From assembly GCA_964613915.1 (NCBI GenBank), contig CAZTIW010000007.1, forward strand, positions 67,828 through 131,827: a stretch of DNA of 64,000 nt. The letters are read 5' to 3'. The stretch comes from an uncultured Thermoanaerobaculia bacterium. Lineage in GTDB: Bacteria; Acidobacteriota; JBCCFW01. Positions 1 through 26,469 of this stretch are shown here, piece by piece (the first letter of the stretch is position 1; each line of letters begins with the position of its first letter). Under the pieces are notes generated by a model. That model ran no database searches. It was not told the origin of the DNA and saw only the letters and a program-made list of their open reading frames with translations. The position numbers and the translations under genes were made by a program.

Positions 1-987
1 GACCCCGAGCGCTCCATGGCGCGCGTGGCCGCCGCCCTCGGCTCGTCAGAGGGCGTTCCGCGTGGCTGGCGCGTCGTCGAACCCGACTCCTTCGGCTGGG
101 CGGCGCTGAACGCGGACGAACCCCTGTTGCTGTCCGAGCTCTCCGATGGCGAGCGGGTCCGCCTGCGCCGTGACGCGGGCGCGCTCGCCGATCGCGCGGG
201 GAGCCTCCTGGCCGTGCCGATGACGTCCGCGCGCCGCCCCGTGGGCGTCCTGCTGCTGCTGCGCGCGCGCGGGCAGGCGCCGTTCACGTCGGCCAGCGCC
301 AAGCTCGCCCGCGCGCTGGCGTCGCAGGCCGGCGTGTCCGTGGGCCACCTGCAGCTCCACGAAGAGAGCAAGGAGATGTTCTTCTCCACCGTGTGGTCTC
401 TCGCGTCGGCGGTGGACGCGAAGGACGCGTACACGCACGGGCACAGCCAGCGCGTGGCGCGCTACTCGGGCGTGCTGGGCCGCGCCCTGGGCTTCGATGA
501 CCAGGAGATCGAGCGGCTCGAGCTCTCGGCGATCCTGCACGATGTCGGCAAGATCGGCGTGCCGGAGGCCATCCTCAACAAGCCGGATCGGCTGACCTCG
601 GCCGAGATGGCGATCATGAAGTCCCATCCCGAAAAGGGCGCCGAAATCCTGAGCACGATCCGCGCCATGCGCGACATCGTGCCGGGCGTGCTCCACCATC
701 ACGAGCGCTACGACGGCATGGGTTATCCGCGCACGCTCAAGGGCGAGAACATCCCGCTCCAGGCTCGCATCATCATCATCGCCGACACGTTCGACGCGAT
801 GACGTCCACGCGACCCTACCGCAACGCCCTGCCCGTTCAGGTGGCGATCGACGAGATCCGCCGGTGCACGGGCACGCAGTTCGATCCCCGGCTGGCCGAC
901 GTGTTCGTCGAGCTCGCCGAACGCGGCATCATCCACCCCATCGAGGGTGTCGTGACGCCGGCTTCCCGAGAGGGCTCACGATCATGA
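1..987 (+). CDS. GAF + HD-GYP c-di-GMP phosphodiesterase (probably 5'-truncated by the window edge)
   Basis: Motifs HSQRV, HDVGKIG, HHERYDGMGYP and ADTFDAMTSTRPYR. A GAF-like segment (LLAVPM...GVLLLL) lies upstream. The frame is open from base 1. Confidence 0.9.
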   Translation, partial: DPERSMARVAAALGSSEGVPRGWRVVEPDSFGWAALNADEPLLLSELSDGERVRLRRDAGALADRAGSLLAVPMTSARRPVGVLLLLRARGQAPFTSASAKLARALASQAGVSVGHLQLHEESKEMFFSTVWSLASAVDAKDAYTHGHSQRVARYSGVLGRALGFDDQEIERLELSAILHDVGKIGVPEAILNKPDRLTSAEMAIMKSHPEKGAEILSTIRAMRDIVPGVLHHHERYDGMGYPRTLKGENIPLQARIIIIADTFDAMTSTRPYRNALPVQVAIDEIRRCTGTQFDPRLADVFVELAERGIIHPIEGVVTPASREGSRS

Positions 988-1418
988 CGCGCCATCGCAA
1001 GGGTCGGATTCTCATCGCGGACGACGAGTACGTGATCTCGCGCTGCGTGTCGTTCATGCTCAAGAAGGAAGGCTTCGACTGCCGCATCGTGTCCGACGGG
1101 CAGGCAGCCATGGACGCCATGCGGGCCGAGCCGCCCGACCTGCTGATCCTGGACCTCGACATGCCCAAGAAGAGCGGCTTCGAGGTCTGTCGCGAGCTGC
1201 GGCAGGAAGCCGCGCTGCGCGGCATGCACGTGCTCGTGCTCACCGCCAAGGGCCAGCCGATGACGCGCGACTGGCGCTCCCGCATCGAGGCCGACTCGTT
1301 CATGCTGAAGCCGTTCGATCCCCGGGCGCTCCTCAAGCACGTCCACGCGCTCTTCGAAACGCTCGCTCCGGCGCTCGAGGAAGACCTGGCCGAGGCGACC
1401 CCCGTCCCGACCCCCTGA
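984..1418 (+). CDS. Single-domain response regulator receiver (CheY-like)
   Basis: ILIADDE, LLILDLDMPKKSG, LTAK and LKPF motifs. ATG at 984 overlaps the HD-GYP stop (ATGA). Confidence 0.9.
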   Translation: MTRHRKGRILIADDEYVISRCVSFMLKKEGFDCRIVSDGQAAMDAMRAEPPDLLILDLDMPKKSGFEVCRELRQEAALRGMHVLVLTAKGQPMTRDWRSRIEADSFMLKPFDPRALLKHVHALFETLAPALEEDLAEATPVPTP

Positions 1419-1430
1419 GCGCGGGGGACG

Positions 1431-1460
1431 TTGACGGCCGCGCTCCCCCCTCCGCATGAT
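1431..1460 (+). promoter_or_regulatory. Sigma70-type promoter TTGACG-N18-CATGAT
   Basis: TTGACG at 1431-1436 and CATGAT at 1455-1460. An ATG follows 7 nt later at 1468, with no SD sequence. Confidence 0.55.
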
Positions 1461-1467
1461 GCTGGGC

Positions 1468-1911
1468 ATGATCGCACGACTGGCACCCCTCCTCTTCGCG
1501 GCGTTCCTTGCCGGAGCGGGCCTCTGCGCCTGTGGCGGCGACTCGACGAACTCCGGCGACCTCATCACCGGCAGCGACGCGGACGGCGACGGCGTGTCGA
1601 ACGCCGAGGACAACTGCCTCCTGGTGCCCAACCCCGGGCAGGCTGACAGCGACCTCGATGGCTTCGGGGACGCGTGCGACTGCGATCGCGTCACCGCCGC
1701 GTGCCTGGACGAGAGCCTCGCCGCCGGCAACTGCGCGAACGGCCGGGATGACGACGGCGACGGTCTCGTGGATGCGGCGGACCCCAATTGCGCGCTCGAG
1801 CGCACGGCTTCCGGGAACTGCGCCGACGGCGTGGACAACGACGGCGATCGCCTGATCGACTGCGCCGAGGCCGACTGTGCCGGCGCGCCCGGGTGCCCCC
1901 CGGCCCCATGA
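1468..1911 (+). CDS. Cys/Asp-rich lipoprotein with thrombospondin type-3-like Ca-binding repeats
   Basis: Signal peptide with lipobox (LCAC). Contains DADGDGVSNAEDNC...DSDLDGFGDACD and two NC(A)xGxDxDGDxLxDxAxxxC repeats. Start at 1468 chosen from promoter spacing; the ORF track gives 1456. Confidence 0.7.
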   Translation: MIARLAPLLFAAFLAGAGLCACGGDSTNSGDLITGSDADGDGVSNAEDNCLLVPNPGQADSDLDGFGDACDCDRVTAACLDESLAAGNCANGRDDDGDGLVDAADPNCALERTASGNCADGVDNDGDRLIDCAEADCAGAPGCPPAP

Positions 1912-2438
1912 GCTCCGGGGGCGAGGACCTCCGGCGCGCGTTCGAGCGCGTGGCTGCGGCGCGGGAGGCGCCGGACCAGAAGGTTGCGGCCGAAGGCGTG
2001 CGCGTTCTCACGTTCGTCCTGTCGGGCGAGCTGCACGCCTTCCGGCTGACGGACCTGGTCGAGGTTGTCGGCAGCGTCGAACCGACGCCCATCCCGTTCG
2101 CGCCGCCCCACGTGCCCGGGGTCGTCAACCATCGCGGGGCGATCGTGCCCGTGGTGGATCTGCGGCGCGCGTTCGGCCTGCAGGTGCACTACCGGCGCGA
2201 GAGCGGTCGCACGATCCTCGTGCGCCACGGCGACGCCATCGTGGGGTTTCTCGCCGACGCCATCGCGGCCATCCGCTCCATTCCGGCCACGGCCATCGAG
2301 CCGCCGCTCGCCACGATGGAAGCCTCGCGCGCGCGATTCCTCGAGGGATGCGTCCGGCTCGACAACCAGGCGCTTCTCGCCGTGCTGTCGGTGGCGGCGC
2401 TGTTCGAGGGACTGAGCGCGCCATCCGAGGCCGAGTGA
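1908..2438 (+). CDS. cheW: CheW adaptor protein
   Basis: VLTFVLSGELHAF...PHVPGVVNHRGAIVPVVDLR...GFLADAI...FLEG. ATGA overlap with the upstream lipoprotein. Confidence 0.9.
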   Translation: MSSGGEDLRRAFERVAAAREAPDQKVAAEGVRVLTFVLSGELHAFRLTDLVEVVGSVEPTPIPFAPPHVPGVVNHRGAIVPVVDLRRAFGLQVHYRRESGRTILVRHGDAIVGFLADAIAAIRSIPATAIEPPLATMEASRARFLEGCVRLDNQALLAVLSVAALFEGLSAPSEAE

Positions 2439-2974
2439 CGCCGCCCGCGCGGGCCGAAGCGCGTGCCCGGCGGGCGCCGGTCCGGCGGCGGCGCGCGGCG
2501 CCCGTGCTCGTGCCCGAGGGCTCCGTCGAGCTCCTGCACTTTTCGGTCGGCAAGCTGCTCTTCGCGGTCGCCCGGACGGCCGTGCGCGCCATCCGGCCGT
2601 CGCCGCGCCTGCGATCCGTGCTGGGCGGCCCGCAGGCGTCGGCGGGGCTCCCGCTGGTGTCGCTCTCGACCGTGCTCGGTCTCGAGCGCGACGCCTCGGT
2701 GGATCGCCGCGTCATCGAGGTCGTCCACTGGGGCCAGCGCCTCGGTCTCGAGGTGACCGCGATCGTGGGCATGCACCACGTGCCGCCGTCCGACTTCCAC
2801 CCGCTGCCGGCATGGCTCAAGCAGACGCTGCGATCCCGCGCGGTGCTCGGCATCGTGCGATGGCGTCCGGACGGCACGACGCCGGGCGCCGGCGCGCACG
2901 AGCGCCTGCTGGTCGCGCTCGAGCTGTCGGTCCTTCTCACCGAACGCGGCGTCGAGGTCCCGACCGACACCTGA
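2435..2974 (+). CDS. Second, divergent CheW-like protein
   Basis: LLHFSVGKLLFAV...LPLVSLSTVLGL...LGLEVTAIVG...VLGIV...LLVALEL follows the CheW pattern. GTGA overlap at 2435. Confidence 0.7.
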   Translation: MTPPARAEARARRAPVRRRRAAPVLVPEGSVELLHFSVGKLLFAVARTAVRAIRPSPRLRSVLGGPQASAGLPLVSLSTVLGLERDASVDRRVIEVVHWGQRLGLEVTAIVGMHHVPPSDFHPLPAWLKQTLRSRAVLGIVRWRPDGTTPGAGAHERLLVALELSVLLTERGVEVPTDT

Positions 2975-3119
2975 GCCGCCCCGCGAGCGCGCTCGAGCCT
3001 CGCGGGCGAGAATTCCCATCGGTTGGAGGAGCTTCCATCGGCTCGCGAGCGCCGCGTCGCCAGCGGCTCCGGAACGGGCACGCGGGCGCCTTTCGCCACG
3101 ACGGCCGCGCCGGAGGGCG

Positions 3120-3135
3120 TGGCACGCGGGCTGCA
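3120..3135 (+). promoter_or_regulatory. Sigma54 (-24/-12) promoter
   Basis: TGGCACGCGGGCTGCA has GG-N10-GC spacing and is a close match to TGGCAC-N5-TTGCW. Confidence 0.6.
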
Positions 3136-3146
3136 CGGAGCCGACC

Positions 3147-5450
3147 ATGGGCGCCCGGCCCCCCTGCCACTCCTCCCGGCACCGCCGCCACCTGACGCGC
3201 ACGCTCGACGCCGCCGGTCCTCGCCGGCAGACGGACGAGCGGGGCAGCGCGCTCGCGCTCGTCCTGTTCGCGTCCACCGCCCTGAGCCTGATGGGCGTCG
3301 GCATTCTCGTGCTGAGCGAGGCCGAGGCGCTGCGCGCCAAGGCGTTCGCGGAGCGGTCACGGTCGCGCGCCGCAGCGGAAGCCGCGGTGGGGCTCGCCTC
3401 GACCTGGTTCACGACGCCCGACCGGGCGTTCGCGCTGCCGCCGCCGCATGCCTGGCGCCTGGATCTGCGGCGTGGCGACTCGGATCTCGACGGACGCGAG
3501 GACGCTGGCTGCGATGGCTCGACCGAGGCGGGGCAGTGGCGCGGCTACCCGCTGGTGCCGCCGCAGGACGATCCCGAGATGGACCGGATCGTCGCGCGTG
3601 CCTGCGGCGAGCCGGCAACGCCGGACCTGCTGCTGGAGTCGCCAGAGGCGCTCGCCCGCATCGGCGAACTCATCGGCAAGGACATCGTCGTGGAGCGGCT
3701 GGCCATCCATGCCGGCCCCGATCTCAACCGGTCGCGATCGGCGCTCACGATCGAGGCCACGACATCCGTGCGGCGCGGGCAAATCACGGTCGCGCGCATG
3801 ACGGTCACGGGACGCGTGCAGGCGCTGCCACGGATCCGCGGCGACGAGGTCCTGCTCGCGCGTGGCGGGATCCGGCTGGAAGCGGGCGCGACCGCGGCGT
3901 GGGGCATCGTGCGCGCCGGCGGCAACATCGATCTCATGCCGCTCGACGACGACAGCTTCCCGCGATCGGGCCTGCCGCGACGCGCCGACGGTTCGCCTGT
4001 CGGGTGGGCCACGGGAGGAGCGACCGACTGGGATCGATCGACGCCGGAGCGCGAGTACGTCCTCACGGAGCTCATCGGCCGCACGCGCCAGGGGGTTCCC
4101 GTGCGCACGGACCTCGTCCGCCCGCCGCCGCTCGCGGATCCGTGGCTCGGGATTCAGGCCGGCGGCGGGGTCACGGCTGCCGGCGTGGACATCGCGCGAG
4201 ACGTCACGCGGCAGCCCTGGCCCTACGATCCGCGCGTCACGACCGTCGAGGACGACCTGTCCTTCATCACGACGGGCGCCGGTCCGCGGGATGCGCTCGC
4301 CGACGGTCGCATCGCTGCCCTGGCGGACCTGACGGCGGGAGCCGCCACCGGCGGCGGGCTGCGCCGCTTCGTCCTCGACGCGTCGGCCTCTCGCGCCGAG
4401 CCCCTCTGGCGCGAGAACGGTGATGGCCCCGCGCGCACGGCGGACGCCTGGCTGGGCGGCACGCGGGGAGCGCCGGTCGTCGCGGCCTTCGTGACGGGCG
4501 GCGCGCCAGCGCCGGCGCGCGTCACGATCACCGGCGCCCGGGGGCTCATCATGATCGAGGCCGGAGAGGTCGTGCTCGATCCGAGCGGTCCGGCGCCGGC
4601 CATCACGGCGAACATGCCGGGCGAGCCCTACGTCGATCTCGGGGCTGACCTTGACGGCGACACGGTCGTGGATCCCTCGACGATCGGCAACGGCCGGTGG
4701 GATCGCGACTTCGACGGCGACGGCGTGGCGGACACGGGCGACTCTGACGGCTGGGAACTGGCGCAGATCGCCGTGCCGTCCTACTGGGTGCCGTACCGCG
4801 ACGCCAGTCCGACCATGCTGCCGAGGTTCCCTCACGAGGCGTTCCTCAATCTGGCCTATCCGATTGATGGCAAGCCAGGACCGGTCCGCGTCGCCTTCCG
4901 CGCGGAGACCGAAGGCGAGCCCGCTCCCGTGGACGACCTCGATGGCGATGGTCTCGTGCGCGCTGGCTTCGATCGCGTGACGACGCTCGCGCGCGACCGC
5001 CGCGGCGCTCGCGTGTCCGTGAACGCGCACGCGCACGCGCTCGTGGTGAACATGACCGGCTCGGTGACGCTGCGTGCGGGGTTCTCCCTCCTCGGCGCCG
5101 TGCGCGCGCAGGGGGACATCGTGCTCGAGCCCGGGGCGCGAGCCCTGTTCGATGAAGCGCTCGGGCGCGAGGGCAGGCTCGCGCTGCCCCTGCCGATGAC
5201 GGTCCTCGCCGGGATTGCCTTCTCCAGCCGGGGCGGCCGCCTCGCGGCCGGAGAGCCCGTCCCCGAAGGCGAGCCGCTGGCGCCTGGAGGCGAGGGCGAT
5301 CCGGAGGGCGGTGAAGGCGGCGGGGCGGGCAAGCCCGGCCCGGGCGCCGGCTCCCCCGGGGCGGGCGGACGCGAGAGTGGAGGAGCGGGCTCCGGCCCGC
5401 GGGGGCCCGAGCCCACCGAGCCCTCCGGGCCCCGGACGCGCCGTCGCTGA
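3147..5450 (+). CDS. Large PilX/GspK-like protein with DxDGD Ca-binding motifs and a Gly/Pro-rich tail
   Basis: ERG|SALALVLF...hydrophobic helix...AAAEAAV is a PilX-type N-terminus lacking Glu+5. DLDGD/DFDGDG motifs are present. The C-terminus is low complexity. Confidence 0.6.
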   Translation: MGARPPCHSSRHRRHLTRTLDAAGPRRQTDERGSALALVLFASTALSLMGVGILVLSEAEALRAKAFAERSRSRAAAEAAVGLASTWFTTPDRAFALPPPHAWRLDLRRGDSDLDGREDAGCDGSTEAGQWRGYPLVPPQDDPEMDRIVARACGEPATPDLLLESPEALARIGELIGKDIVVERLAIHAGPDLNRSRSALTIEATTSVRRGQITVARMTVTGRVQALPRIRGDEVLLARGGIRLEAGATAAWGIVRAGGNIDLMPLDDDSFPRSGLPRRADGSPVGWATGGATDWDRSTPEREYVLTELIGRTRQGVPVRTDLVRPPPLADPWLGIQAGGGVTAAGVDIARDVTRQPWPYDPRVTTVEDDLSFITTGAGPRDALADGRIAALADLTAGAATGGGLRRFVLDASASRAEPLWRENGDGPARTADAWLGGTRGAPVVAAFVTGGAPAPARVTITGARGLIMIEAGEVVLDPSGPAPAITANMPGEPYVDLGADLDGDTVVDPSTIGNGRWDRDFDGDGVADTGDSDGWELAQIAVPSYWVPYRDASPTMLPRFPHEAFLNLAYPIDGKPGPVRVAFRAETEGEPAPVDDLDGDGLVRAGFDRVTTLARDRRGARVSVNAHAHALVVNMTGSVTLRAGFSLLGAVRAQGDIVLEPGARALFDEALGREGRLALPLPMTVLAGIAFSSRGGRLAAGEPVPEGEPLAPGGEGDPEGGEGGGAGKPGPGAGSPGAGGRESGGAGSGPRGPEPTEPSGPRTRRR

Positions 5451-5544
5451 GGGGGCTCGCGGGACCGCGGGGCTCGCGTCGGCCGCGTCCCGCGATGCAT
5501 GCTGGAGACTGAAGCCGCCCGGGGCGGCGCAACGGAGACGTGAC

Positions 5545-6852
5545 ATGGCAGCGACGCGCTGGAGCCTTCGAAGCATCTTCACGCTCCTGTCGGCGGGCCT
5601 GGTCCTGGTCGGCGGGGCGATCATCGTGCTGGCCATGGACGTGCAGATGCGCGCCGGCCGCACCGAGGCGGCGTTGATCACGGGCACCATCGTGCTCGTG
5701 ATCGCCGTGGCCGTCACGGCGCTGGCCGCGCACTTCGTTTCGGGCAGCGTCGTGCAGCCCCTCGAGCGCATGGTGGACGTCGCGTCGGCCGTGGCGCAGG
5801 GCGACTATCAGCGCGTGGCCGAGCTGCGGTCGCAGATTCACGAGATCGGCGAGCTCGCCGACGCCTTCGCCGCCATGCGCCGCCACCTGGCCGAGGTCGC
5901 GCAGCAGGCCCGCCGCGTGGCGTCGGGCGATCTCTCGCATCGCATCGCGGGCGGAGGCGATCTCGCCGAGGCCTTCAACACGATGGCCGACTCGCTCTCG
6001 AGGCTGATCGGCCAGCTGCAGCAGGCCAGCGACCGCATCGGCAGCGCGTCCTCCGAGATCCTGACGGGATCCCGCGCCGCCGAGCGCGGGTCCACCGAAC
6101 AGGCCTCGTCAATCGCCCAGACGACGGCGACCATGGACGAGCTGCTGGCGGCCTCGAAGCAGATCGCGGCGTCCTCTGACGCCGTCGTGAAGATCGCCGA
6201 GCGCACGCTGTCGGCGGCCAAGTCCGGCGAGGATGCCGTGCAGCAGAGCATCGGGGGCATGCAGGAGATCGCGAGCAACAACCGGCAGACGGCCGAGCGG
6301 ATCCTCGAGCTGTCCGAGCGGAACCAGCAGATCGGCAACATCGTGGACCTGATCGACGAGATCGCCGACAAGTCCGACCTGCTCGCGCTCAATGCCGCCA
6401 TCGAGGGCGCCAAGGCCGGCGAGGCGGGGAAGGGCTTCGCCGTCGTGGCGACGGAAATGCGGTCGCTCGCCGAGAACGTCGTCGAGTCCACGAAGGAGAT
6501 CAAGGCGCTGATCTCCGAGATCCAGAAGGCCTCGAACGCCTCGGTGCTGGCGACCGAGGGCCAGATGAAGGCGACGGATCGCGGCACGCAGGTGGCGCAG
6601 AAGACGGGCGACCAGCTGCGCGAGATCCTGCAGATGGTCGTGCAGACGACCGAGGCCGCCAAGCAGATCTCGCTCGCCACGCAGCAGCAGCGGACGGGCA
6701 CGGAGCAGGTCGTGCAGTCCATGTCCGAGATCGCGCGCATCGCCCGATCGAACGTGGCGGGCGCGTCGCAGACGACCGGCGCGACGTCGGAACTCGCGCG
6801 GCTCTCCGAGGAGCTCAAGGCCGCCGTCAGCCAGTTCCGCCTGACCCGCTAG
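5545..6852 (+). CDS. Methyl-accepting chemotaxis protein (2 TM, tandem HAMP, no periplasmic sensor domain)
   Basis: Signalling tip DLLALNAAIEGAKAGEAGKGFAVVATEMRSLAE. Two hydrophobic helices are separated by about 11 aa. GGAGA RBS lies before ATG 5545. Confidence 0.92.
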   Translation: MAATRWSLRSIFTLLSAGLVLVGGAIIVLAMDVQMRAGRTEAALITGTIVLVIAVAVTALAAHFVSGSVVQPLERMVDVASAVAQGDYQRVAELRSQIHEIGELADAFAAMRRHLAEVAQQARRVASGDLSHRIAGGGDLAEAFNTMADSLSRLIGQLQQASDRIGSASSEILTGSRAAERGSTEQASSIAQTTATMDELLAASKQIAASSDAVVKIAERTLSAAKSGEDAVQQSIGGMQEIASNNRQTAERILELSERNQQIGNIVDLIDEIADKSDLLALNAAIEGAKAGEAGKGFAVVATEMRSLAENVVESTKEIKALISEIQKASNASVLATEGQMKATDRGTQVAQKTGDQLREILQMVVQTTEAAKQISLATQQQRTGTEQVVQSMSEIARIARSNVAGASQTTGATSELARLSEELKAAVSQFRLTR

Positions 6853-6942
6853 CGGAGGCAGCTTGACGCCCTTGCATCGCATGCCAGCGCGCGTTCGCCC
6901 GTCGCGACGCGTGGCCCGCGCGAGCGTTCCGGGCTAGCGCGC

Positions 6943-9840
6943 GTGGACCTCTCGAAGTTCCTCGGGAAGTTCCGCGACGCGACGCGCGATCACCTGCGTC
7001 GCATGAACGAGCTGCTCCTGCGCCTCGAGCAGGAGCCCGGTTCCGAGGACTCGGTCACGGAGCTGATGCGGGAGATCCACACGCTCAAGGGCGAGGCGCG
7101 CATGATGGGGGCGAGCGCGATGGCGGATCTCGCGCACGCCACGGAGGACCTGCTCAAGGCGCAGGAGGCTGCGAGATTCGAGGGCCTCGCGAGCGTCATT
7201 GACCTGCTGTTCGCGGTGTTCGACGACACCGACCGCCTGCTGCGCGAGATGCTCGGCGAGGCGCCCGCCGAGGTGGACGTGGCCGCGCGCTGCCGGGCGC
7301 TCCGCACCGCGGCGGGCCTTCCACCCGAGCCCGAGGACGAGCCCGTCGAGGCCAGCGACGCGCCTCCCGTCGACGACGCTCCGTCGCGCGCCCTTTCCAT
7401 GCAGCCGTTGCCCGAGCTCCCCTCGGTGGCGTCCCCTCAGGACGAGGGCCTCGACATGGGGGATCTCGGGCTCGAGGAGGACGAGGACGACGGCGACTGG
7501 GAGCCGCCACCGCCCGATGCCGACGTCGATCCGGAGGCCGCCCTGCGCGAGGCGTTCGGGCTTCAGGCCGGCGTGGCCCAGGAGATCGGCGAGGGCGGCG
7601 CCGTCGCTGCTCCTGGCGAGCGCGCGGTCTCCGTCGGCGGGAGCTCCCAGAAGTTCGTCGCCCGGTATCGGGACGTCGCGCAAGAGCGGCTGCGCGCGTT
7701 GCAGGCCGCGCTGACGGCGCTCGGACGATCCGCCGATGACACGGCCGCGCTGGGAACGCTGGCGGATGAAGCATCCGCCCTCGCCGACGAATCGCGGCAG
7801 CTCGGCTTCGACGACGCGGCCCTTCTCGCCCACGGGTGCGCCGCGGTCGGCGCCGTCAGCGATCCCGCCCGCGTGCGAGCGAGCCTCGGCGCCGTGGCCG
7901 ATGCGCTCGAGGCGCTCGGGCGCATCGTCGCCGAGCGGCTCGGCGGTCCGCCGGCGAACGCGGACGTCGGCACGCTCCTCGAGCGCCTGGCGGAGGCTCG
8001 CCCCCCGGAGGGCGAAACGCCTGTCAGCGCTCCGGCGCGCGCGGGAGGCGGGACGGTCGCCGCGCAGTCAGCGCCGGTCGCGCCCGTTCGCGGCGCGGTC
8101 GAGGAGACCATCCGCGTTTCCGTGGGCCGGCTCGACCGGCTCGGCATGCTCTCGAGCGACATCTACCTCAGCCATGCGTCGGCCGAGACGCGCTTGCGCC
8201 ACCTGCGAGGCCTTCTCGAGCAAGCCAAGGCCTGCGTCCAGGCGGTCGGACAGGCCCGGTCGGCGCTGGGCGCGGCGGGGGCGGCCGGAGGCGCGGTCTC
8301 GTCGCTGATTCCGATCCACGACGAGCTGCTCACGAGCGCGCGCGCCCTGCGACGCGGCGTGCGCGATGTCCTGCGCGTCGAGCGCGACGAGCTGCTCCGA
8401 TCGGGCCACGCTGTCGTGGAACTGCGCGAGCGCGTTCGCGAGCTGCAAGTGCTCCCGGTCTCGACGCTCTTCGACCTCTACCCGCGCATGGTGCGCGATC
8501 TCGCGCGCGATCTCGGCAAGCAGGTCAAGCTCGTCATCGAGGGGGGCGATCGCGAGCTGGACAGGCGGGTGCTGGACGAGATCCGCGACCCCATGGTGCA
8601 TCTCCTTCGCAACGCGATCGACCACGGGATCGAGAGTCCGTCCGTCCGGCAGGCCGCGGGGAAGCCCGCCGCCGGGACGCTCACGCTGTCCGCCCGCGCT
8701 GACGGCGACCACGTCGTCATCGAGGTGCGCGACGACGGCGCGGGCATCGATCCGGCCGCGATCCGCCGCGTGGCGGTGGCACGGGGCGTGCTGTCGGCGG
8801 ACGAGGTCGCGACGCTCAGCGACGAGCGCGCCATGGACCTCATCTTCAACGCCGGATTCTCGTCGCGGGACGCCGTGACCGACGTGTCGGGTCGCGGTGT
8901 CGGTCTGGACGTCGTGCGCGAGCGCGTGGATCGGCTCGAGGGCACGCTGTCCGTCTGGTCCGTTCCGGGGCAGGGGACTCGGTTCGTCGTGCGCCTGCCG
9001 CTCACGCTCGCGATGGCGAGGCTCATCCTGGCGCGCGCGGGCGGCCTTCTCGTCGGCCTGCCTGCCGCGCTCGTGGACGAGGTGCTGCCCATCCACGAGT
9101 CACAGGTCCGCCGCGTGGAAGGCTACGAGGCCGTCGAGTGGTCGGGCCGCGCCGTGCCGCTGGTCTCGCTCGCGGGCCTGCTCGATCGCGATCCCGAGAC
9201 GATCCCCGGCGCGAACCGCCACGTGGCGGTCGTGCACGTGGACGAGCACGTCGTGGCGCTGGTCGTGGACGCCTTCGCTGGCGAGCGCGAGGCGGTGGTC
9301 AAGCGGCCGGATCCGTTCCTGGGCAAGCTCCGCCACGTCGCCGGGGCGACGATCCTCACCACGGGCGAGGTCGTGACCGTGTTGCACGTGCCGCAGATCA
9401 TCGCCGCGACGATGGGCGTCGAGCCCGCCAGGCTGCAGGCGCGCGTGCGGGTTGCGGCGGAGGCGCCGGCGCGCAAGCGCCGCCTGCTGGTGGTGGACGA
9501 CTCGATCATCGTGCGCGACATGATGAAGAGCGTCCTCGTCGCGGCTGGATTCGAGGTCACGCTGGCGGTGGACGGGCAGGACGGTCTCGACAAGCAGACG
9601 GCTGGCGGCTACGACGCGGTCGTCACGGACGTCGAGATGCCGCGCATGACCGGACTCGAGCTCGTGCGCACGCTGAGGCAGATCCCCGCCATGGCGCGCG
9701 TGCCGATCGTCATGGTCACGACGCTCGACAGCCCCGAGGCGCGGGAGGAAGGCATGCGCGCCGGGGCCTCGGCGTACCTGGTCAAGAACCTGCTCGACAT
9801 GCGTCACCTGGTCGCCACGATCGAGCGCCTGCTCGGCTGA
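6943..9840 (+). CDS. cheA: CheA-CheY hybrid histidine kinase (FrzE/ChpA-like)
   Basis: Hpt REIHTLKG; P3 ETIRVSVGRLDRL; HATPase HLLRNAIDHGIE, DDGAGID, GFSS, GRGVGLDVV; CheW domain; C-terminal receiver VDDS/VTDVEMP. Confidence 0.95.
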   Translation: MDLSKFLGKFRDATRDHLRRMNELLLRLEQEPGSEDSVTELMREIHTLKGEARMMGASAMADLAHATEDLLKAQEAARFEGLASVIDLLFAVFDDTDRLLREMLGEAPAEVDVAARCRALRTAAGLPPEPEDEPVEASDAPPVDDAPSRALSMQPLPELPSVASPQDEGLDMGDLGLEEDEDDGDWEPPPPDADVDPEAALREAFGLQAGVAQEIGEGGAVAAPGERAVSVGGSSQKFVARYRDVAQERLRALQAALTALGRSADDTAALGTLADEASALADESRQLGFDDAALLAHGCAAVGAVSDPARVRASLGAVADALEALGRIVAERLGGPPANADVGTLLERLAEARPPEGETPVSAPARAGGGTVAAQSAPVAPVRGAVEETIRVSVGRLDRLGMLSSDIYLSHASAETRLRHLRGLLEQAKACVQAVGQARSALGAAGAAGGAVSSLIPIHDELLTSARALRRGVRDVLRVERDELLRSGHAVVELRERVRELQVLPVSTLFDLYPRMVRDLARDLGKQVKLVIEGGDRELDRRVLDEIRDPMVHLLRNAIDHGIESPSVRQAAGKPAAGTLTLSARADGDHVVIEVRDDGAGIDPAAIRRVAVARGVLSADEVATLSDERAMDLIFNAGFSSRDAVTDVSGRGVGLDVVRERVDRLEGTLSVWSVPGQGTRFVVRLPLTLAMARLILARAGGLLVGLPAALVDEVLPIHESQVRRVEGYEAVEWSGRAVPLVSLAGLLDRDPETIPGANRHVAVVHVDEHVVALVVDAFAGEREAVVKRPDPFLGKLRHVAGATILTTGEVVTVLHVPQIIAATMGVEPARLQARVRVAAEAPARKRRLLVVDDSIIVRDMMKSVLVAAGFEVTLAVDGQDGLDKQTAGGYDAVVTDVEMPRMTGLELVRTLRQIPAMARVPIVMVTTLDSPEAREEGMRAGASAYLVKNLLDMRHLVATIERLLG

Positions 9841-10096
9841 AGCGCCAGGGGGTTTCATCTCCACGCATCATGGAACCCACCGGACGCATCACGCGGGGCA
9901 TGGCCGCGTGGCCGGGAGGGGACGCCGGGGGACGGCCGCCCCGGCCGGGGCCGCCGGGAGCCGGCGGGCCCCCCGCTGATGATGCGGACTCGGAGTCGCC
10001 GCGAGCGAGCTGGCGGCGTCCTTGACGCCGGGCAGGGGGTCCGGCACTCTTGCGCGGCATCCCCAGCACTGAAGGCCGGAGGCAGAAGGATCCGCC

Positions 10097-10504
10097 GTGA
10101 GCGACGCGTCAGGAGCGAGTCCCGAGGTCAAGGGCAAGGTCCTCGTCATCGACGACTCCGAACTCGTGCTCGAGCTGACGCGCGACGCGCTCGAGGAAGC
10201 CGGCTATCGCGTGTACACGAACTCCTCGTGGATGGAGGTCAACTCGACCATTCGCGAGCACCGTCCCGACATGATCCTTCTGGATCTCATGATGCCCTCG
10301 ATGAAGGGCGAGTCGCTGTGCGAGATCCTCAAGAAGTCCTCATTCGGGCGCTCCATCCCCATCATCATCTTCTCCACGAAGGAGGAGTCCGAGATCCAGC
10401 GCCTGGCAGAGGACGCCGGGGCGGACGGGTACATCGTGAAGCGCATGAACCGCCGGGACATCGTCGAGGCCGTGGACCACTTCTTCGAGAAGTTCTGTGC
10501 GTGA
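10097..10504 (+). CDS. Single-domain response regulator receiver
   Basis: VLVIDDS, ILLDLMMPSMKG, IFST and IVKR motifs. Confidence 0.88.
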   Translation: MSDASGASPEVKGKVLVIDDSELVLELTRDALEEAGYRVYTNSSWMEVNSTIREHRPDMILLDLMMPSMKGESLCEILKKSSFGRSIPIIIFSTKEESEIQRLAEDAGADGYIVKRMNRRDIVEAVDHFFEKFCA

Positions 10505-10560
10505 TCGCCGGCACTCTGCCGTGCCGCGCGCATGCGGAGCCCCATGATCGCTGATCATGG

Positions 10561-10606
10561 CGGGTCGTGCAGCGCGACCCTGGCCGGGTCGTCCGGCGCG
10601 ACCCTG
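10561..10606 (+). repeat. Two tandem 22-bp hairpin-forming repeats upstream of gltX
   Basis: cgggtcgtgcagcgcgaccctg (10561-10582) and cgggtcgtccggcgcgaccctg (10585-10606), each containing a GGGTCG...CGACCC inverted repeat. Confidence 0.75.
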
Positions 10607-10620
10607 ACCCCGGCGCCCTC

Positions 10621-12075
10621 ATGACACGCACCGTTCCGCGCACGCGCATCGCGCCGTCGCCGACGGGCGATCCGCACGTGGGCACGGCGTACATGGCCGT
10701 GTTCAATCGCGCCCTCGCGCACGCGGGCGGCGGCCAGTTCCTGCTGCGCATCGAGGACACCGATCGGCAGAGATTCAACGCCCGGTCCGAAGCGATGATC
10801 TTCCGGGCGCTGGACTGGCTCGGGCTGCGCCCCGACGAGGGGCCGGAGACCGGCGGTCCGCATGCGCCCTACCGGCAGTCGGAGCGCTTGCCGCTGTACC
10901 AGACCCACGCGCAGGTGCTTCTCGAGCGCGACCGCGCGTACCGGTGCTTCTGCACGGGCGAGCGGCTCGAGCGCCTGCGCGCCGCGCAAGCGGCCTCCAG
11001 GCAGCCCCCGCGCTACGACAGGACGTGCTCGGCCATCCCGCGCGATGAGGCCGAGCGGCGAGGCGCGAGCGAGACGCACGTCGTGCGCCTCCGCGTGCCG
11101 CTCGACGGCTCGACCGTCGTGCGCGACGCGTTGCGTGGCGAGGTCGCGTTCGAGAACGCGCTGCTCGACGATCAGGTGCTCCTGAAGTCCGACGGCTTCC
11201 CGACCTACCACCTGGCCGTGGTCGTGGACGATCGCGAGATGGGCATCACGCACGTGATCCGGGGCGAGGAGTGGATCCCGTCCACGCCCAAGCACGTGAT
11301 GCTCTACGACGCGTTCGGCTGGCCCGAGCCGACCTGGTGCCACATGCCGCTGCTGCGCAACGCCGATCGCAGCAAGCTGTCCAAGCGGAAGAACCCGACG
11401 TCGCTGGACTGGTTCCGCGAGCAGGGCTATCTCCCCGAAGCGCTGGTGAACTTCCTGTGCCTCATGGGGTGGTCGCATCCCGACGGAATCGAGTTGTTCG
11501 GGTGGGAGGAGTTCGTCCGCGTCTTCACGCCCGATCGGATTCACCTGGGCGGCCCGATCTTCGACATGGACAAGCTCGCGCACCTGAACGGCCTCTGGAT
11601 CCGCTCGCTCGAGCCCGCCGCGCTTCTCGAGAGACTTCGCTCCGAGCATCACCTCGGTGAACAGGCGATCGGCGCGCCCGAGCCGCTGCTTCTCGGCGCG
11701 GTGGAGCTCGTTCGCGACCGCCTGACGCGGCTGTCCGAGTTCCAGAGCCTGACCGACTTCTTCTTCGCGGATCCCGCCCTCGAGGAGGCGGCGTTGCGAG
11801 GGAGGATGACCGCGCAGGCCGCACGCGGAGCGCTCGACGGGGCGCACGCGGCGCTCGCGGGTCTCGGTTCGTGGGCGACGCCGGACATCGAGGCCGCCGT
11901 GCGCGATCTCGGCGAGGCCGGGCCGCTCAAGAAGAAGGATCTGTTCATGACCTTGCGCGTGGCGATCACGGGACGCACCGTGTCCACGCCTCTCTTCGAA
12001 ACCATGGCCGCGCTCGGGCGAGACACCTCGCTCAAGCGGCTCCGGCGCGCGGCCGACGCCGTGCCCGCCACCTGA
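10621..12075 (+). CDS. gltX: Glutamyl-tRNA synthetase
   Basis: RIAPSPTGDPHVG (HIGH motif), FLLRIEDTD, DGFPTYHLA, HVIRGEEW, KLSKR (KMSKS motif) and LRVAITG. Confidence 0.95.
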   Translation: MTRTVPRTRIAPSPTGDPHVGTAYMAVFNRALAHAGGGQFLLRIEDTDRQRFNARSEAMIFRALDWLGLRPDEGPETGGPHAPYRQSERLPLYQTHAQVLLERDRAYRCFCTGERLERLRAAQAASRQPPRYDRTCSAIPRDEAERRGASETHVVRLRVPLDGSTVVRDALRGEVAFENALLDDQVLLKSDGFPTYHLAVVVDDREMGITHVIRGEEWIPSTPKHVMLYDAFGWPEPTWCHMPLLRNADRSKLSKRKNPTSLDWFREQGYLPEALVNFLCLMGWSHPDGIELFGWEEFVRVFTPDRIHLGGPIFDMDKLAHLNGLWIRSLEPAALLERLRSEHHLGEQAIGAPEPLLLGAVELVRDRLTRLSEFQSLTDFFFADPALEEAALRGRMTAQAARGALDGAHAALAGLGSWATPDIEAAVRDLGEAGPLKKKDLFMTLRVAITGRTVSTPLFETMAALGRDTSLKRLRRAADAVPAT

Positions 12076-12310: not shown

Positions 12311-13117
12311 TCACCAGCCGACGATGGAGTATCCGGCGTCCACGTGCAGCGTTTCGCCCGTGACGCCGGAGCCCAGGTCCGAGAGCAGGTAGAGCCCGCT
12401 CGAGCCGACCTCTTCGGCCGTGACGTTGCGACGGAGCGGTGCCTTCTCGCGGTGATGCTTGAGCATCTCGGTGAACGAGCCGACGCCTCGCGCCGACAGC
12501 GTCGAGATCGGCCCGGCGGAGATGCAGTTCACGCGGATGCCCACGGGGCCGAGCTCGAAGGCCAGCTGCCGGACCGCGTGCTCGAGCGCCGCCTTGGCAG
12601 AGCCCATGACGTTGTAGTTGGGCACGGCGCGCTCGGCGGCCATGTACGACAGCGCGAGCACGGATCCGCCGCGACCCGGCGGGCTGCCTTCAGCTTCCGG
12701 GGGCGCCTCCATGAGCGGCGTGGCGTGCTTCATGACCGCCACGAGCGAGAAGGCCGAGATCTCGAGCGCCACGCGCCAGCCCTCGCGCGACGTGTCGCGA
12801 TAGGCGCCGGCGAGGTCTTCCTTCTGCGCGAAGGCGATGGAGTGCACGCAGGCGTCGAGGCGCGAGGTCTCCTCTCCGATGTGCCTGAAGAGCGCCTCGA
12901 TCTGGGCATCATCCGCCACGTCGCAGGGGAGGACGAGCGCGCCGGGGAGGTCGGCCGCGAGGTCCCGCACGCCGGCCTCCAGGCGGTCGCCCTGATACGT
13001 GAGGATGAGCCGCATGCCCGCGCGGTTGAGCGCCAGGGCGATCGCCCAGGCCAGACTCCGCTTGTTGGCGACGCCAAGAATGAGGCCGGTCCGGCCGGTG
13101 AGGTCGACGGGGTACAC
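12311..13117 (-). CDS. fabI: Enoyl-ACP reductase
   Basis: LILGVANKRSLAWAIA, HSIAFA, YNVMGSAKAALE and RVNCISAGPI motifs. GTG start with a GGAGA RBS. Confidence 0.95.
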   Translation of the reverse strand: MYPVDLTGRTGLILGVANKRSLAWAIALALNRAGMRLILTYQGDRLEAGVRDLAADLPGALVLPCDVADDAQIEALFRHIGEETSRLDACVHSIAFAQKEDLAGAYRDTSREGWRVALEISAFSLVAVMKHATPLMEAPPEAEGSPPGRGGSVLALSYMAAERAVPNYNVMGSAKAALEHAVRQLAFELGPVGIRVNCISAGPISTLSARGVGSFTEMLKHHREKAPLRRNVTAEEVGSSGLYLLSDLGSGVTGETLHVDAGYSIVGW

Positions 13118-13241
13118 CAGGGTCTCCTTGTCCCGGAGAGCCCCGGCAGGAGGCCCTCGCGGCGCCCCGAGCATGCCACGCCGCCATGATAGAGTCGCTG
13201 CGCCAGCGGCGTCTTTCTGCTGCGATCTGGTCTGGAGATCC

Positions 13242-14828
13242 GTGCCCCCCGAGATCCGCTTCGAGCAATCCGGCGAGCGCCGCTCATTCGTGCTCGTCAA
13301 GGATGAGATCCTGATCGGTCGTTCGCCCGAGAACGATCTCATCGTTCAGGACGGCTCGATCTCGCGCCATCACGCCAGGATCCATCGCGAGGGCGGCGCC
13401 TGGCGCCTGTCAGATCTCGGGAGCAAGAACGGGACGCACGTCAACGACGCGGCGGCCGGGGGGACCGTCCTGCGGGACGGCGACGCCATCCTGCTCGGCA
13501 AGGTCCCCATGACCTTCCACGACGCGGCCGAGGGCGTGGCGCTGACGTCGCAGCCGGGCACCATGGTGGACGACGCCTCGGGCACGATCTGCCGGTCGGC
13601 GGTGGACTTCTCCGCCATGGCGGGCAAGCCTGCCGCGGCCACGGAGCGCGCGGCGCAGCTCGACGCCGAGCGCCTGCGCAAGCTCGTCGCCGTGGTGACC
13701 GAGGTGTCGGCCGCGCTCCTGTCGAGCCTGCCGCTCGAGAAGGTGCTCGACTCGCTGCTCGACATCGTCTTCCAGCACCTGCCCGTCGAGCGCGCGTGCG
13801 TCCTGCTCTGGGACGAGAAGCGACAGGAACTGATCCCGAAGGTCATGCGGTCGCGCTCCGAGAAGACCAAGGGCGAGATCAACATCTCGCGCACCATCGC
13901 CGAGAAGGTCTTCCGGGAGAAGGTCGCCGTGCTCACGACGGACGCGCAGCACGACCCGCGGTTCGCGGGCGGAGCGTCCATCCTCGCCCTGGGCATCCGC
14001 TCGGCCATGGCGGCCCCCATCTGGAGGGGCGATCGCGTGGACGGCATCATCTACGTGGACACGCCTCTCCACGTGAAGGCGTTCGACGACTTTGACCTGG
14101 ACCTGCTTTCCGCGCTCGGCAACCATGCCGCCGTCGCCCTCGAGCAGTCCCGGCTGCAGGAGTCCATCCTGAGCGAGCGCCTGTCGCGGCAAAAGCTCGA
14201 GCGGTATCACTCGCCCGGCGTGGTCGAACGGATCACCAAGTCCGGCGGCCAGATGGAGATGCTCGAGGCCGACGAGCGCGAGGTCACCGTGCTCTTCGCC
14301 GACGCCGTGGGGTTCACCGATCGGTGCGAGCACGTCGAGCCCCGCGAGATTGCCGAGTTGCTCAACCGGCACTTCAGCCGCATGGCGGACATGGTGTTCC
14401 GGCACGAGGGCACGCTGGACAAGTTCATCGGCGACTGCCTCATGGCCGTCTTCGGAGCGCCCTTTCCCGTCGAGGACCATCCCGTGCGGGGCGTCCAGGC
14501 GGCCGTGGACATGCGCGAGGCCCTGCGCGAGCTGAACGAGGAGCTGCCCGAGAGCGACCGCCTCGAGTTCCGCGTGGGGCTTCACTCGGGCAGGGTCGTC
14601 GCCGGCGACATCGGGTCGGCCAAGCGTTCCGACTACACGGTGCTCGGCGCGACGGTGAATCTGGCCGCGAGGATCCAGGGGAGCGTCGCGGAGCCCGGGC
14701 AGATCATCATCAGCGATGCCACGGCCTCCGCGCTCGGGAACCGGTTCCGCCTGCGCGAGGTGGGGGAGTATCAGCCCAAGGGCATCTCGCGTCCGGTGAT
14801 GTGCTTCGAGGTTCTCGGCCACGCCTGA
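13242..14828 (+). CDS. FHA-GAF-class III adenylate cyclase
   Basis: FHA (IGRSPENDL...ISRHHA...DLGSKNGT), GAF (IRSAMAAPI...IIYVD) and cyclase (VLFADAVGFT, DKFIGDCLMAVFG, DYTVLGATVNLAARI). Confidence 0.92.
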   Translation: MPPEIRFEQSGERRSFVLVKDEILIGRSPENDLIVQDGSISRHHARIHREGGAWRLSDLGSKNGTHVNDAAAGGTVLRDGDAILLGKVPMTFHDAAEGVALTSQPGTMVDDASGTICRSAVDFSAMAGKPAAATERAAQLDAERLRKLVAVVTEVSAALLSSLPLEKVLDSLLDIVFQHLPVERACVLLWDEKRQELIPKVMRSRSEKTKGEINISRTIAEKVFREKVAVLTTDAQHDPRFAGGASILALGIRSAMAAPIWRGDRVDGIIYVDTPLHVKAFDDFDLDLLSALGNHAAVALEQSRLQESILSERLSRQKLERYHSPGVVERITKSGGQMEMLEADEREVTVLFADAVGFTDRCEHVEPREIAELLNRHFSRMADMVFRHEGTLDKFIGDCLMAVFGAPFPVEDHPVRGVQAAVDMREALRELNEELPESDRLEFRVGLHSGRVVAGDIGSAKRSDYTVLGATVNLAARIQGSVAEPGQIIISDATASALGNRFRLREVGEYQPKGISRPVMCFEVLGHA

Positions 14829-14843: not shown

Positions 14844-15689
14844 TCACTGCGGCTGGACGGCGAGGAACGACGGCACGGGCACGCCTGCCACGAGCAGCGC
14901 AGGGTCTGACCCCGCGACGTGCAATTGCGAGGAGGAGCCGCCATCCAGGTTGATGGCGGCCGCGAGGCCCGCGCCCCCGTCCGCCGGCGAGCGCGCGAGA
15001 AGCCGCGCGAGCTCTCCGAGCGTCACGGCGCCCGTGGTGGCCCCGATGACGATGCGGCCCTGCGCATCCTGGCCGACGAAGGACCGGCGCGCGACGCGCG
15101 GGGACGTGAGGGTCCGCGCCTTCCCGTTCATCACGAGCAGGGGGCCTGCTTGCACGGCCTCGGTCGTGCCGGCCGGAAGCGGCGCGGCGGCCTCGCCCAG
15201 CACGAGGCGCCCGGAGGCGATCGCGGCCCACGCCCAGCCGCGACGGTTGACCGCCTGGATCTGCCGGCCGCCGCTCACGAGCGCGCCGACGGGGTGGCCC
15301 CGCTCGTCGAAGTAGGCGGCGTTGATCACGGCCAGCGCGCCGGACTCCGCGGCGAAGGGCGAGGCGAGGTGGCGCGTGAAGGCGCCGGTCTGGCTGGTCG
15401 GGGCGGCGGACACCAGGCGGTGGGCGGCCGGGTCGAGCCGCACCAGCCACGCGACGTCAGGCGCCTCCGCTCGCGCCGGCAAGTCGAGGCTGCGCAACTC
15501 CAGCCCGCCCGGGAGCGCGCGCCAGGCGCCGCCCGTGGCTCCGCCCGGCGCGCCCGCGCCGTGGGCGAGGGACGCGGTGGCCGCGAGGAGAGCCGCGAGG
15601 ACGGCGATGCTTGGCCTGCGCGGCCGAGAGGCTACAATGCCCGCCCAGGAGCTGCCGATGCCCGATTGCCGTGGAAACTCTGCTCGCAT
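14844..15689 (-). CDS. Secreted phosphodiester glycosidase family protein (NAGPA/DUF2233-like); start uncertain
   Basis: AVINAAYFD, VQAGPLLV, RSFVG and AINLDGGSSS motifs, with a signal-peptide-like N-terminus. Confidence 0.75.
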   Translation of the reverse strand: MRAEFPRQSGIGSSWAGIVASRPRRPSIAVLAALLAATASLAHGAGAPGGATGGAWRALPGGLELRSLDLPARAEAPDVAWLVRLDPAAHRLVSAAPTSQTGAFTRHLASPFAAESGALAVINAAYFDERGHPVGALVSGGRQIQAVNRRGWAWAAIASGRLVLGEAAAPLPAGTTEAVQAGPLLVMNGKARTLTSPRVARRSFVGQDAQGRIVIGATTGAVTLGELARLLARSPADGGAGLAAAINLDGGSSSQLHVAGSDPALLVAGVPVPSFLAVQPQ

Positions 15690-26319: not shown

Positions 26320-26469
26320 CAGCGAACCCCCGAGGTGTGCGGGGCGGAACGCCGCCGCCGACGGCCTCGCCCGGGTAGAGCCGCCTCGCTGCATCATGCT
26401 CCGGGCTTCGAACGGGCGTCAACGTTGCCCCGGGGCGGGCGAGGGGCCGCGGTCGCAGGCTGGGGTGCA

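Follow-up and report, generated by a model that had tools for sequence, protein, structure and literature searches.

A giant PilX-family gene within a reduced chemosensory cluster of an uncultured Thermoanaerobaculia bacterium and its possible link to cyclic di-GMP hydrolysis

The closest described relatives of the gene cluster reported here are the Pil-Chp system of Pseudomonas aeruginosa (PilG, PilH, PilI, PilJ, PilK, ChpA, ChpB, and ChpC), which belongs to the type IV pilus (Tfp) class of chemosensory systems, and the Wsp system of Pseudomonas, which belongs to the alternative cellular function (ACF) class and directs synthesis of cyclic di-GMP (c-di-GMP) via WspR. Approximately 93% of CheA kinases with multiple histidine phosphotransfer (Hpt) domains fall in the ACF or Tfp class, and >90% of these carry a receiver (PMC10782961); the Pseudomonas WspA and PilJ homologues are receptors of the 40H type (PMC11253619). 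How pili or pilins inform chemosensory kinases is a matter of debate even in Pseudomonas. A further point of comparison is ComZ of Thermus thermophilus, a pilin with an inserted β-solenoid which is thought to be located at the pilus tip (PMC6561018). We analyzed a stretch of 64,000 nucleotides from an uncultured Thermoanaerobaculia bacterium (assembly GCA_964613915.1, contig CAZTIW010000007.1, positions 67,828 to 131,827), hereafter the window. It begins with a chemosensory (che) cluster in which a 767-aa relative of PilX minor pilins, here termed X, is encoded between a CheW gene and the gene for an MCP (methyl-accepting chemotaxis protein) that has no periplasmic sensor domain. Our best reading, which we hold tentatively and to which we give a little less than an even chance, is that X gives an envelope or surface signal to this sensor-less MCP and that receivers pass the output to c-di-GMP hydrolysis. 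All of the evidence is comparative, and the organisms are uncultured.

Because the G+C content of the window is high (∼72%), raw lists of open reading frames (ORFs) were noisy, and we chose coding frames by third-position GC (GC3). Nine genes, all on the + strand and in GC3-supported frames, span positions 1-10504. The first (1-987), cut by the window edge, is the 3′ part of a gene encoding GAF and HD-GYP domains (Pfam HD_5, E 1.4e-41, 142.5 bits; GAF_3, E 5e-7). It is followed by genes for REC1, a single-domain receiver (984-1418; Response_reg, E 2.8e-24); a lipoprotein-like secreted protein of 151 aa (1456-1911); the coupling protein CheW1 (1908-2438; Pfam CheW, E 3.1e-30); and CheW2, a divergent second CheW (2435-2974; Pfam CheW, E 7.3e-9, 35.8 bits against a cut-off of 23.5). 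X, the giant minor-pilin homologue, occupies 3147-5450, and after it come the 435-aa MCP (5545-6852; MCPsignal, E 5.3e-38; HAMP, E 2.5e-16), a 965-aa CheA-CheY hybrid in which Pfam identifies Hpt, HATPase, CheW, and receiver (REC) domains (6943-9840), and REC2, a second single-domain receiver (10097-10504; Response_reg, E 2.6e-25), beyond which lies gltX (∼10567-12075). The MCPsignal, CheW, and CheA-type domains expected of a Che-type pathway are thus encoded together, all above Pfam gathering scores. Stop and start codons overlap in the sequence ATGA at 984-987 (HD-GYP/REC1), in ATGA at 1908-1911 (lipoprotein/CheW1), and in GTGA at 2435-2438 (CheW1/CheW2). An earlier note, made from the letters of the window, had described co-oriented genes joined by such overlaps, and the coding frames, the overlap sequences, and two identical assemblies bear this description out.

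Those assemblies are two Logan contigs whose source studies are unrelated: one, of 16,170 bp, is from the metagenome of a bioreactor and the other, of 15,196 bp, from that of wastewater, and each covers positions 1-10700 of the window with 0 mismatches and 0 gaps. Since two independent assemblies give the identical sequence, the locus is not an assembly artefact. Many apparent joints in the contig matching proved to be chance short matches of unrelated contigs, and the full-length contigs had no rearrangement. One of the two covering contigs, L001, extends 5.4 kb beyond the window on the upstream side and there carries the rest of the HD-GYP gene (455 aa in full), a gene for a 918-aa GAF-HisKA-HATPase kinase, and one divergently oriented gene. 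A scan for promoters and terminators returned a single promoter-like site, at 1431-1460, and no terminator on the + strand.

The identity of X emerged from its family. X itself has no Pfam match even at E ≤ 10, no NCBIfam match, and no PDB match in a sequence-profile search. The family is small, consisting of 4 proteins (X and three others) among 5.8 billion 90%-identity clusters, and a HMMER pass over 1.84 billion representatives returned 14 X-family proteins at E ≤ 1e-30; most of the weaker matches to the X profile were limited to profile positions ∼15-100. Two family members reach Pfam PilX_N, both below its threshold (P0004, 20.2 bits with a cut-off of 25.5, E 6e-4; P0002, E 1.5). When the X family was aligned with large PilX_N proteins by hhalign, the match reached a probability of 100% and E 3.7e-91 over 641 aligned columns, and a search with the X-family profile reached P0015 at E 3e-32. 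The earlier note had called X PilX-like, a label that the window protein alone cannot support in Pfam; because of the full-length profile homology to bona fide large PilX_N proteins, the label is nonetheless correct at the family level. We consider it established, by sequence comparison, that X is a relative of the PilX family.

More distant relatives of X lie in operons of pilin genes. In L005, from a metagenome-assembled genome (MAG) of Thermoanaerobaculia, a prepilin peptidase, a GspH/N_methyl pilin, and a 1091-aa N_methyl protein precede an 817-aa X relative; in L017, FimT-like and PilV-like pilins and a 1517-aa N_methyl protein precede an 870-aa PilX_N protein. L013, which holds a more distant X relative, has a GspH-like pilin, a 1677-aa N_methyl protein, and PilX_N (E 3.8e-10), followed by an NtrC-type regulator. 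Among GTDB genomes, the distant relatives come from Thermoanaerobaculia; the GTDB and JGI contig scans used exact peptide patterns, hence the few loci recovered. In two further loci, X-like relatives stand outside che clusters and are followed by Ser/Thr protein kinase genes (L011, 2048-6858; L016, 2697-3263), two of the L011 kinases having TPR regions. The pattern suggests that the large PilX-like family has repeatedly been paired with signaling genes.

X and the large PilX_N proteins have in common an N-terminal [DE]RGSAL motif followed by a hydrophobic stretch and Glu. X displays the architecture of a pilin: a basic leader ending in Gly, an ERG/SAL motif, one hydrophobic segment (residues 36-57, or about 34-57 as a helix) followed by E58/E60, and a β-rich body, the helix and β parts being as modeled. 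The body contains conserved DxDxDG-type loops and a conserved Cys122/Cys153 pair, and the C-terminal tail is of low complexity and rich in G, P, and E. There is no Glu at mature position 5 of X; GspK and PilX likewise lack it. An AlphaFold (AF2) model built from an 11-sequence alignment (mean predicted local distance difference test, pLDDT, 67; predicted TM-score, pTM, 0.68) has a 58-residue N-terminal helix (31-88) and then β structure. Its only significant PDB matches were three chains of T. thermophilus ComZ (6qvi; E 2.9e-4, probability 0.96), after which β-solenoid ice-binding proteins matched at E ∼0.1. Elsewhere in the window, just after priA, an overlapping minor-pilin pair is encoded at 38371-39341 (+), comprising a 187-aa N_methyl pseudopilin (E 1.9e-4) and a 136-aa PilX_N protein (38931-39341) which scores above the Pfam cut-off (E 1.1e-5) and carries the same [DE]RGSAL-type motif at its N terminus. 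The genome thus encodes a conventional small PilX besides the giant X.

Contigs from five further metagenome samples also have X between CheW2 and the MCP, at identities that go as low as 28%. L002 has the order HD-GYP, REC, two inserted small genes (one PhdYeFM-like), lipoprotein, CheW, CheW, X, MCP, CheA, and the same order is found in L003 and L004, which are fragments. L010 reads X, MCP, CheA-REC, REC, gltX; the L004 and L010 contigs contain only the downstream side of X. L008 is longer: a response regulator-PAS-GAF-kinase, HD-GYP, REC, CheW, CheW, X, a TonB-dependent receptor, a PF04392 binding protein, a 591-aa MCP, a 1317-aa CheA-REC, and CheB. In L009, an unrelated PALP gene is followed by CheW, X, a TonB-dependent receptor, a binding protein, MCP, and CheA. 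Identity of X to the window protein is 46-49% in L002-L004, 40% in L008, and 28% in L009. The other proteins of the system have the following identities to their window counterparts: HD-GYP, 65% (59-66% across loci); REC1, 73% (70-73% for L008, L018, and L019); CheW1, 52% (48-60% for L002, L008, and L014); CheW2, 43% (36-54% among orthologues); the cytoplasmic part of the MCP, 68-73%; and the CheA core, 56-62%. REC2 is the best-conserved protein of the system (82% in L015 and 70% in L010), and gltX lies downstream of it in both of these loci as it does in the window; a PDB search with REC2 gave generic receiver matches only. L015 runs MCP, CheA, four inserted regulator genes, CheB, REC2, gltX, the insertion (5880-10879) comprising an HTH_18 regulator, a sigma-70 family factor, and two NtrC-type sigma-54 activators.

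Sister loci with the same gene frame were found via orthologues of the kinase and the HD-GYP protein: L014 (from the NCBI Acidobacteriota MAG GCA_039029535.1), L018, and L019. In these three, the slot after CheW2 holds an unrelated signal-peptide protein of ∼950-980 aa, here termed Y, which has no Pfam hit and no hit to the X profile (gene or slot at 1625-4570 in L014, 11803-12873 in L018, and 10148-12991 in L019). The slot after CheW2 is always filled by a large extracytoplasmic protein, X or Y. The earlier note had proposed synteny in relatives as a check on the PilX-like and lipoprotein genes. The PilX-like gene is syntenic down to 28% identity and replaced in the three sister loci, and the lipoprotein gene is in place only in the closest relatives, with orthologues confined to L002 (56%) and L003 (59%).

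The lipoprotein matches NF033662, the NCBIfam acidic double-disulfide repeat, at 53.9 bits (cut-off 41), and TSP_3 (thrombospondin-type-3-like) at 23.6 bits, under the 25-bit cut-off. It had been labeled Ca-binding; this label has DxDxDG-type motifs behind it and is weaker than had been stated. A TSP3-like stretch of 37 aa in the lipoprotein is 62% identical to part of the C terminus of the L019 Y protein.

The window MCP consists of two transmembrane helices with a loop of ∼11 residues between them, a HAMP domain, and a 40H-like signaling domain. Orthologous MCPs (584-616 aa) have a segment of ∼170 aa between the transmembrane helices, whereas the L002 MCP is short like that of the window; since the alignment begins at residues ∼183-240 of the orthologues, it is this ∼170-aa periplasmic part that the window MCP lacks. 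Among the relatives, the periplasmic segment co-occurs with the TonB-dependent receptor, the PF04392 (ABC_sub_bind) binding protein, and CheB. The receptor and binding-protein pair lies between X or Y and the MCP, at 12321-15824 in L008, 4367-7802 in L009, and 4686-8090 in L014. When the relatives' TonB-dependent receptor, binding protein, and CheB were compared with the window by tblastn, only receiver-domain matches were returned. Because the receptor, the binding protein, and the MCP sensor domain are absent, X and the lipoprotein are the sole extracytoplasmic proteins left in the window cluster, and by these comparisons of gene content the system is present in the window in reduced form. 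L008, L014, and L015 encode CheB, CheR was seen in none of the loci, and neither is encoded in the 64-kb window by a Pfam scan of the GC3-supported ORFs or in the 5.4 kb upstream, in agreement with the earlier note, which had seen no CheR or CheB in view and had suggested looking upstream. The strict methylation-site consensus was found neither in the window MCP nor in four of five orthologues, although this consensus is that of enteric bacteria and its absence is weak evidence.

We asked to which class of chemosensory system the cluster belongs. In the kinase, the first Hpt domain retains its His (REIHTLKGE) and is followed by an Hpt-like second repeat (residues 234-352), HATPase and CheW domains, and a C-terminal REC; no P2 domain was detected by Pfam. 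In the second repeat, Ser stands in place of His (DEASALADES versus REIHTLKGEA), and the repeat can be aligned to Hpt repeats of the kinases in L008 and L014; among long-form kinases, the number of Hpt repeats is at least three. The window kinase falls in a tight clade of 7 proteins, beyond which identity is ≤41% and the names are a mixture of CheA, ChpA, and WspE, and its one close homologue with a named source comes from an Acidobacteriota MAG. In view of this homologue and of the Thermoanaerobaculia origin of the distant X relatives in GTDB, a Myxococcota source, which the 72% GC, the TSP3/MYXO-type repeats, and DUF4388 had suggested, was rejected. Relative to Tsr, a 36H receptor, the MCP has symmetric insertions of 14 aa, one per arm, with the tip at about residue 293 and a C-terminal arm of 142 aa, or ∼20 heptads, so that its assignment to the 40H type is an argument from length and not a call by a class hidden Markov model (HMM). 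Since the kinase has two Hpt-like domains and a REC, and the MCP is 40H-like, the system appears to be of the ACF/Tfp type. The suggestion that it is Frz/Chp/Wsp-like rather than flagellar thereby gains support.

The HD (ILHDVGK) and GYP (HHERYDGMGYP) motifs are intact in the translated HD-GYP gene, and the GAF and HD-GYP protein is predicted to be a c-di-GMP phosphodiesterase. Its orthologue clade comprises 18 clusters at ≥56% identity, after which the score drops sharply. REC1 has the DD, phospho-acceptor D, T, and K residues, and the phospho-acceptor residues are intact in all of the receivers. A block of genes for the GAF histidine kinase, GAF-HD-GYP, REC1, CheW, and CheW is kept in five of the six informative loci (window/L001, L002, L008, L018, and L019), and because the HD-GYP gene stays with REC-CheW-CheW in these five, a link between the che genes and c-di-GMP hydrolysis is plausible.

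On the reading we favor, X would be anchored by, or matured from, its single pilin-like N-terminal helix, with the remainder outside the cytoplasm. X, perhaps with the small Ca-binding-type lipoprotein, would be the extracytoplasmic partner that reports the state of the envelope or surface to the MCP, most simply by helix-helix contact in the membrane, and where X is replaced, Y would be the envelope-side partner feeding the MCP. The MCP would set the activity of CheA through CheW1 and CheW2. CheA would phosphorylate the receivers, with its own REC acting as a sink, REC2 as the conserved CheY-like output, and REC1 as a third target. REC1, translationally coupled to the GAF-HD-GYP enzyme, may then modulate c-di-GMP hydrolysis. 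The gene content, the homologies, the conserved order, and the reduced state are as described above; the direction of signaling, the contact between X and the MCP, and the coupling of REC1 to the HD-GYP enzyme are what we infer from them.

Several observations weigh against this reading. The Foldseek TM-scores of the X model against ComZ are low (0.19/0.26), and one third of the model is of low confidence. The contact between PilA and PilJ of P. aeruginosa is reproducible in two-hybrid assays, but its signaling role is disputed (bioRxiv 10.1101/2022.05.13.491915). In the three sister loci, X is swapped for the unrelated secreted Y; because Y replaces X, X is not indispensable to the pathway and a transmembrane contact between X and the MCP cannot be universal. 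Placement of the cluster in the ACF/Tfp group is supported by domain makeup and receptor length and not by class HMMs. The region was present in none of the RNA-seq runs searched. The remaining points concern the proposed output. The HD-GYP protein carries a GAF domain and not a REC, and its own GAF kinase is encoded directly upstream; L009, the most distant X-bearing locus, is without HD-GYP and REC1; and in L002, a gene for a PhdYeFM-antitoxin-like protein (95 aa) and an opposite-strand ORF of 51 aa (1902-2577) lie between REC1 and the lipoprotein gene.

With a GAF in place of a receiver and a kinase of its own upstream, the HD-GYP block could be a separate two-component module. The cluster would then be two adjacent modules, one formed by the GAF kinase, the GAF-HD-GYP enzyme, and REC1, and the other by the che genes and X, whose output would go via REC2 elsewhere, for example to a type IV pilus motor as with PilG and PilH. 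The dedicated GAF-HisKA-HATPase kinase is found directly upstream of HD-GYP in every locus that reaches that far, the CheW-X-MCP-CheA series persists in L009 in the absence of the HD-GYP block, and the insertion in L002 falls at the proposed boundary. REC2, at 82% identity the best conserved, stays at the che end of the cluster, and a T2SSE-family ATPase and minor pilins are encoded elsewhere in the window. However, HD-GYP and REC1 adjoin the CheW pair in all but one of the informative loci, at 59-66% HD-GYP identity and with gaps of ∼35-170 bp, and persistence of so exact an order usually reflects a functional link. We regard two independent modules as unlikely, if still deserving serious weight. 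The proposal of the earlier note that the pathway outputs to c-di-GMP hydrolysis accordingly stands in part: the intact motifs and conserved adjacency make it plausible, and the GAF domain, the separate kinase, and the absence of the enzyme from L009 count against it.

If the favored reading errs instead at the input end, X could be cargo or output, serving as adhesin or tip subunit in a fiber of the type IV pilus or pseudopilus kind, while the MCP would sense a different cue, for example the membrane, a signal in the cytoplasm, or an input at the level of HAMP. Sensor-less MCPs are common, and the X gene might have its place among the che genes merely so that they are co-expressed, or because display of X is under the control of the pathway. 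All of the verified distant X homologues are in minor-pilin operons with FimT/GspH-, PilV-, and PilW-like genes, and X is interchangeable with another large secreted protein. ComZ-like β-solenoid pilins are tip-located ligand binders (PMC6561018). Yet X has no further pilin gene, PilY1 gene, or assembly gene beside it in the che-linked loci (window/L001, L002, L008, and L009), and X is kept where the set of TonB-dependent receptor, binding protein, and MCP sensor has been lost, which leaves X and the lipoprotein as the only candidate extracytoplasmic inputs. We consider it rather improbable that X is solely an output of the pathway.

That the window cluster is a decaying remnant of a fuller system, with no coherent function, is very improbable: although four elements (CheB, the MCP sensor domain, the binding protein, and the TonB-dependent receptor) are absent by comparison with L008, L014, and L015 and the MCP is without the methylation consensus, all nine ORFs are intact with coding-type GC3 (0.85-0.93), the catalytic and phospho-acceptor residues are kept, and the short form, including the lipoprotein, is conserved in lineages in which X is only 46-49% identical.

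The proposal that X signals to the MCP can be carried further. A pilin-family protein might have taken on the role of a dedicated extracytoplasmic co-receptor for a chemoreceptor that lacks a sensor domain, signaling helix to helix within the membrane and coupling the state of the surface or envelope to the breakdown of c-di-GMP, with a modular slot in which X and Y are alternative sensors. We think this full scheme doubtful, with perhaps a slim chance of being right in all its parts; if true, it would be an operon-encoded, hard-wired version of the disputed idea of pilin-MCP signaling. The cluster fixes a pilin-family protein genetically between CheW and a receptor without its own sensor domain. 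Because X is fixed beside a sensor-less receptor, the set of X, the MCP, two CheW proteins, CheA, two to three receivers, and one HD-GYP enzyme may offer a minimal system for direct pilin-to-receptor coupling and for coupling of che to c-di-GMP. We take the cluster to represent an undescribed chemosensory lineage in uncultured Acidobacteriota-like bacteria, and its long form (with TonB-dependent receptor, binding protein, and CheB) and reduced form illustrate how a pathway may gain or lose inputs. The earlier note did not recognize the placement of a PilX-like gene inside che genes, and our literature searches likewise returned no described class with the same gene order. They gave no description of a giant PilX-family or minor-pilin gene embedded in a che operon, of a slot alternating between two unrelated secreted proteins, of a trio of TonB-dependent receptor, PF04392 protein, and chemoreceptor, or of an HD-GYP neighbor in such a cluster.

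Other genes of the window include some that touch on the same themes. A T2SSE-family secretion or pilus ATPase is encoded at 25105-26397 (−) (E 1.5e-71), and a 356-aa protein with a weak match to T2SSG, the major pseudopilin, at 15322-16392 (+) (E 2.6e-4); from these two matches, machinery for pili or type II secretion seems to be encoded close to the cluster. Beyond gltX and a gene resembling enoyl-ACP reductase, a gene at 12999-14828 (+) encodes an FHA-GAF-adenylate/guanylate cyclase, a second-messenger enzyme near the che cluster, whose start is probably further downstream, since the listed ORF overlaps an ORF at 12311-13342 (−) by ∼340 bp. Two genes at 17267-21102 (+) resemble DNA-repair pairs of the MrfA/MrfB type, the first encoding a DEAD/Helicase_C protein that has an MrfA Zn-binding domain and the second a member of the RNase_H_2 superfamily. 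A 329-aa ORF at 50182-51171 (−) has several EF-hand motifs (EF-hand_1, 113.7 bits); because it overlaps the listed start of an opposite-strand GrpB-methyltransferase ORF, one of the two ORF calls is too long. The gene at 59253-63998 (+) is cut by the end of the window and encodes a protein of >1581 aa in which FG-GAP, PKD, and PQQ-propeller domains occur.

How, then, does the locus compare with known systems? RpfG-type HD-GYP regulators resemble it in that an HD-GYP c-di-GMP phosphodiesterase should answer to a phosphorylated receiver, but here the receiver is a separate, translationally coupled polypeptide and the enzyme has GAF instead. ComZ and the PilX/GspK tip minor pilins are like X in their N-terminal pilin-type helix and in the large β-rich, solenoid-like body that X is modeled to have, and by profile comparison X is homologous over its full length to large PilX_N proteins from operons of the fimT/pilV/pilW/pilX kind. 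X differs from them in being encoded without another pilin gene, in its G/P/E-rich tail, and in falling below Pfam PilX_N detection.

Pil-Chp is alike in its kinase, which has more than one Hpt, some of them without His, a C-terminal receiver, and no P2; in its two CheW-type proteins, two single-domain receivers, and 40H-type receptor; and in its tie to type IV pilus proteins (PilA-PilJ in two-hybrid assays), with CheB present in the long-form relatives of the window cluster. It differs in that here the pilin-family gene is inside the che operon, the Hpt-like domains number 2 as against 8-9 in ChpA, CheR is in no locus, CheB is not in the window, and the receptor is without a periplasmic domain. 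The neighbors here are a GAF-HD-GYP gene and a GAF kinase, whereas the output of Pil-Chp is cAMP and the pilus motors and not c-di-GMP hydrolysis, and the window kinase is only ∼32-38% identical to JGI-named ChpA proteins. Wsp differs in having CheR and CheB and no pilin-like gene, and its output is a directly phosphorylated REC-GGDEF cyclase where the candidate here is a GAF-HD-GYP hydrolase with a separate receiver; the window has none of the adaptation enzymes of the Tfp and Wsp types, and its candidate output enzyme is not fused to a receiver as that of the Wsp type is. Wsp is nonetheless linked, as we propose for this cluster, to the surface or envelope, it has a CheA-REC hybrid, two CheW-like proteins, and a 40H receptor, and its output changes c-di-GMP. 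Every domain of the window cluster comes from a known family, and its overall logic resembles that of Pil-Chp and Wsp.

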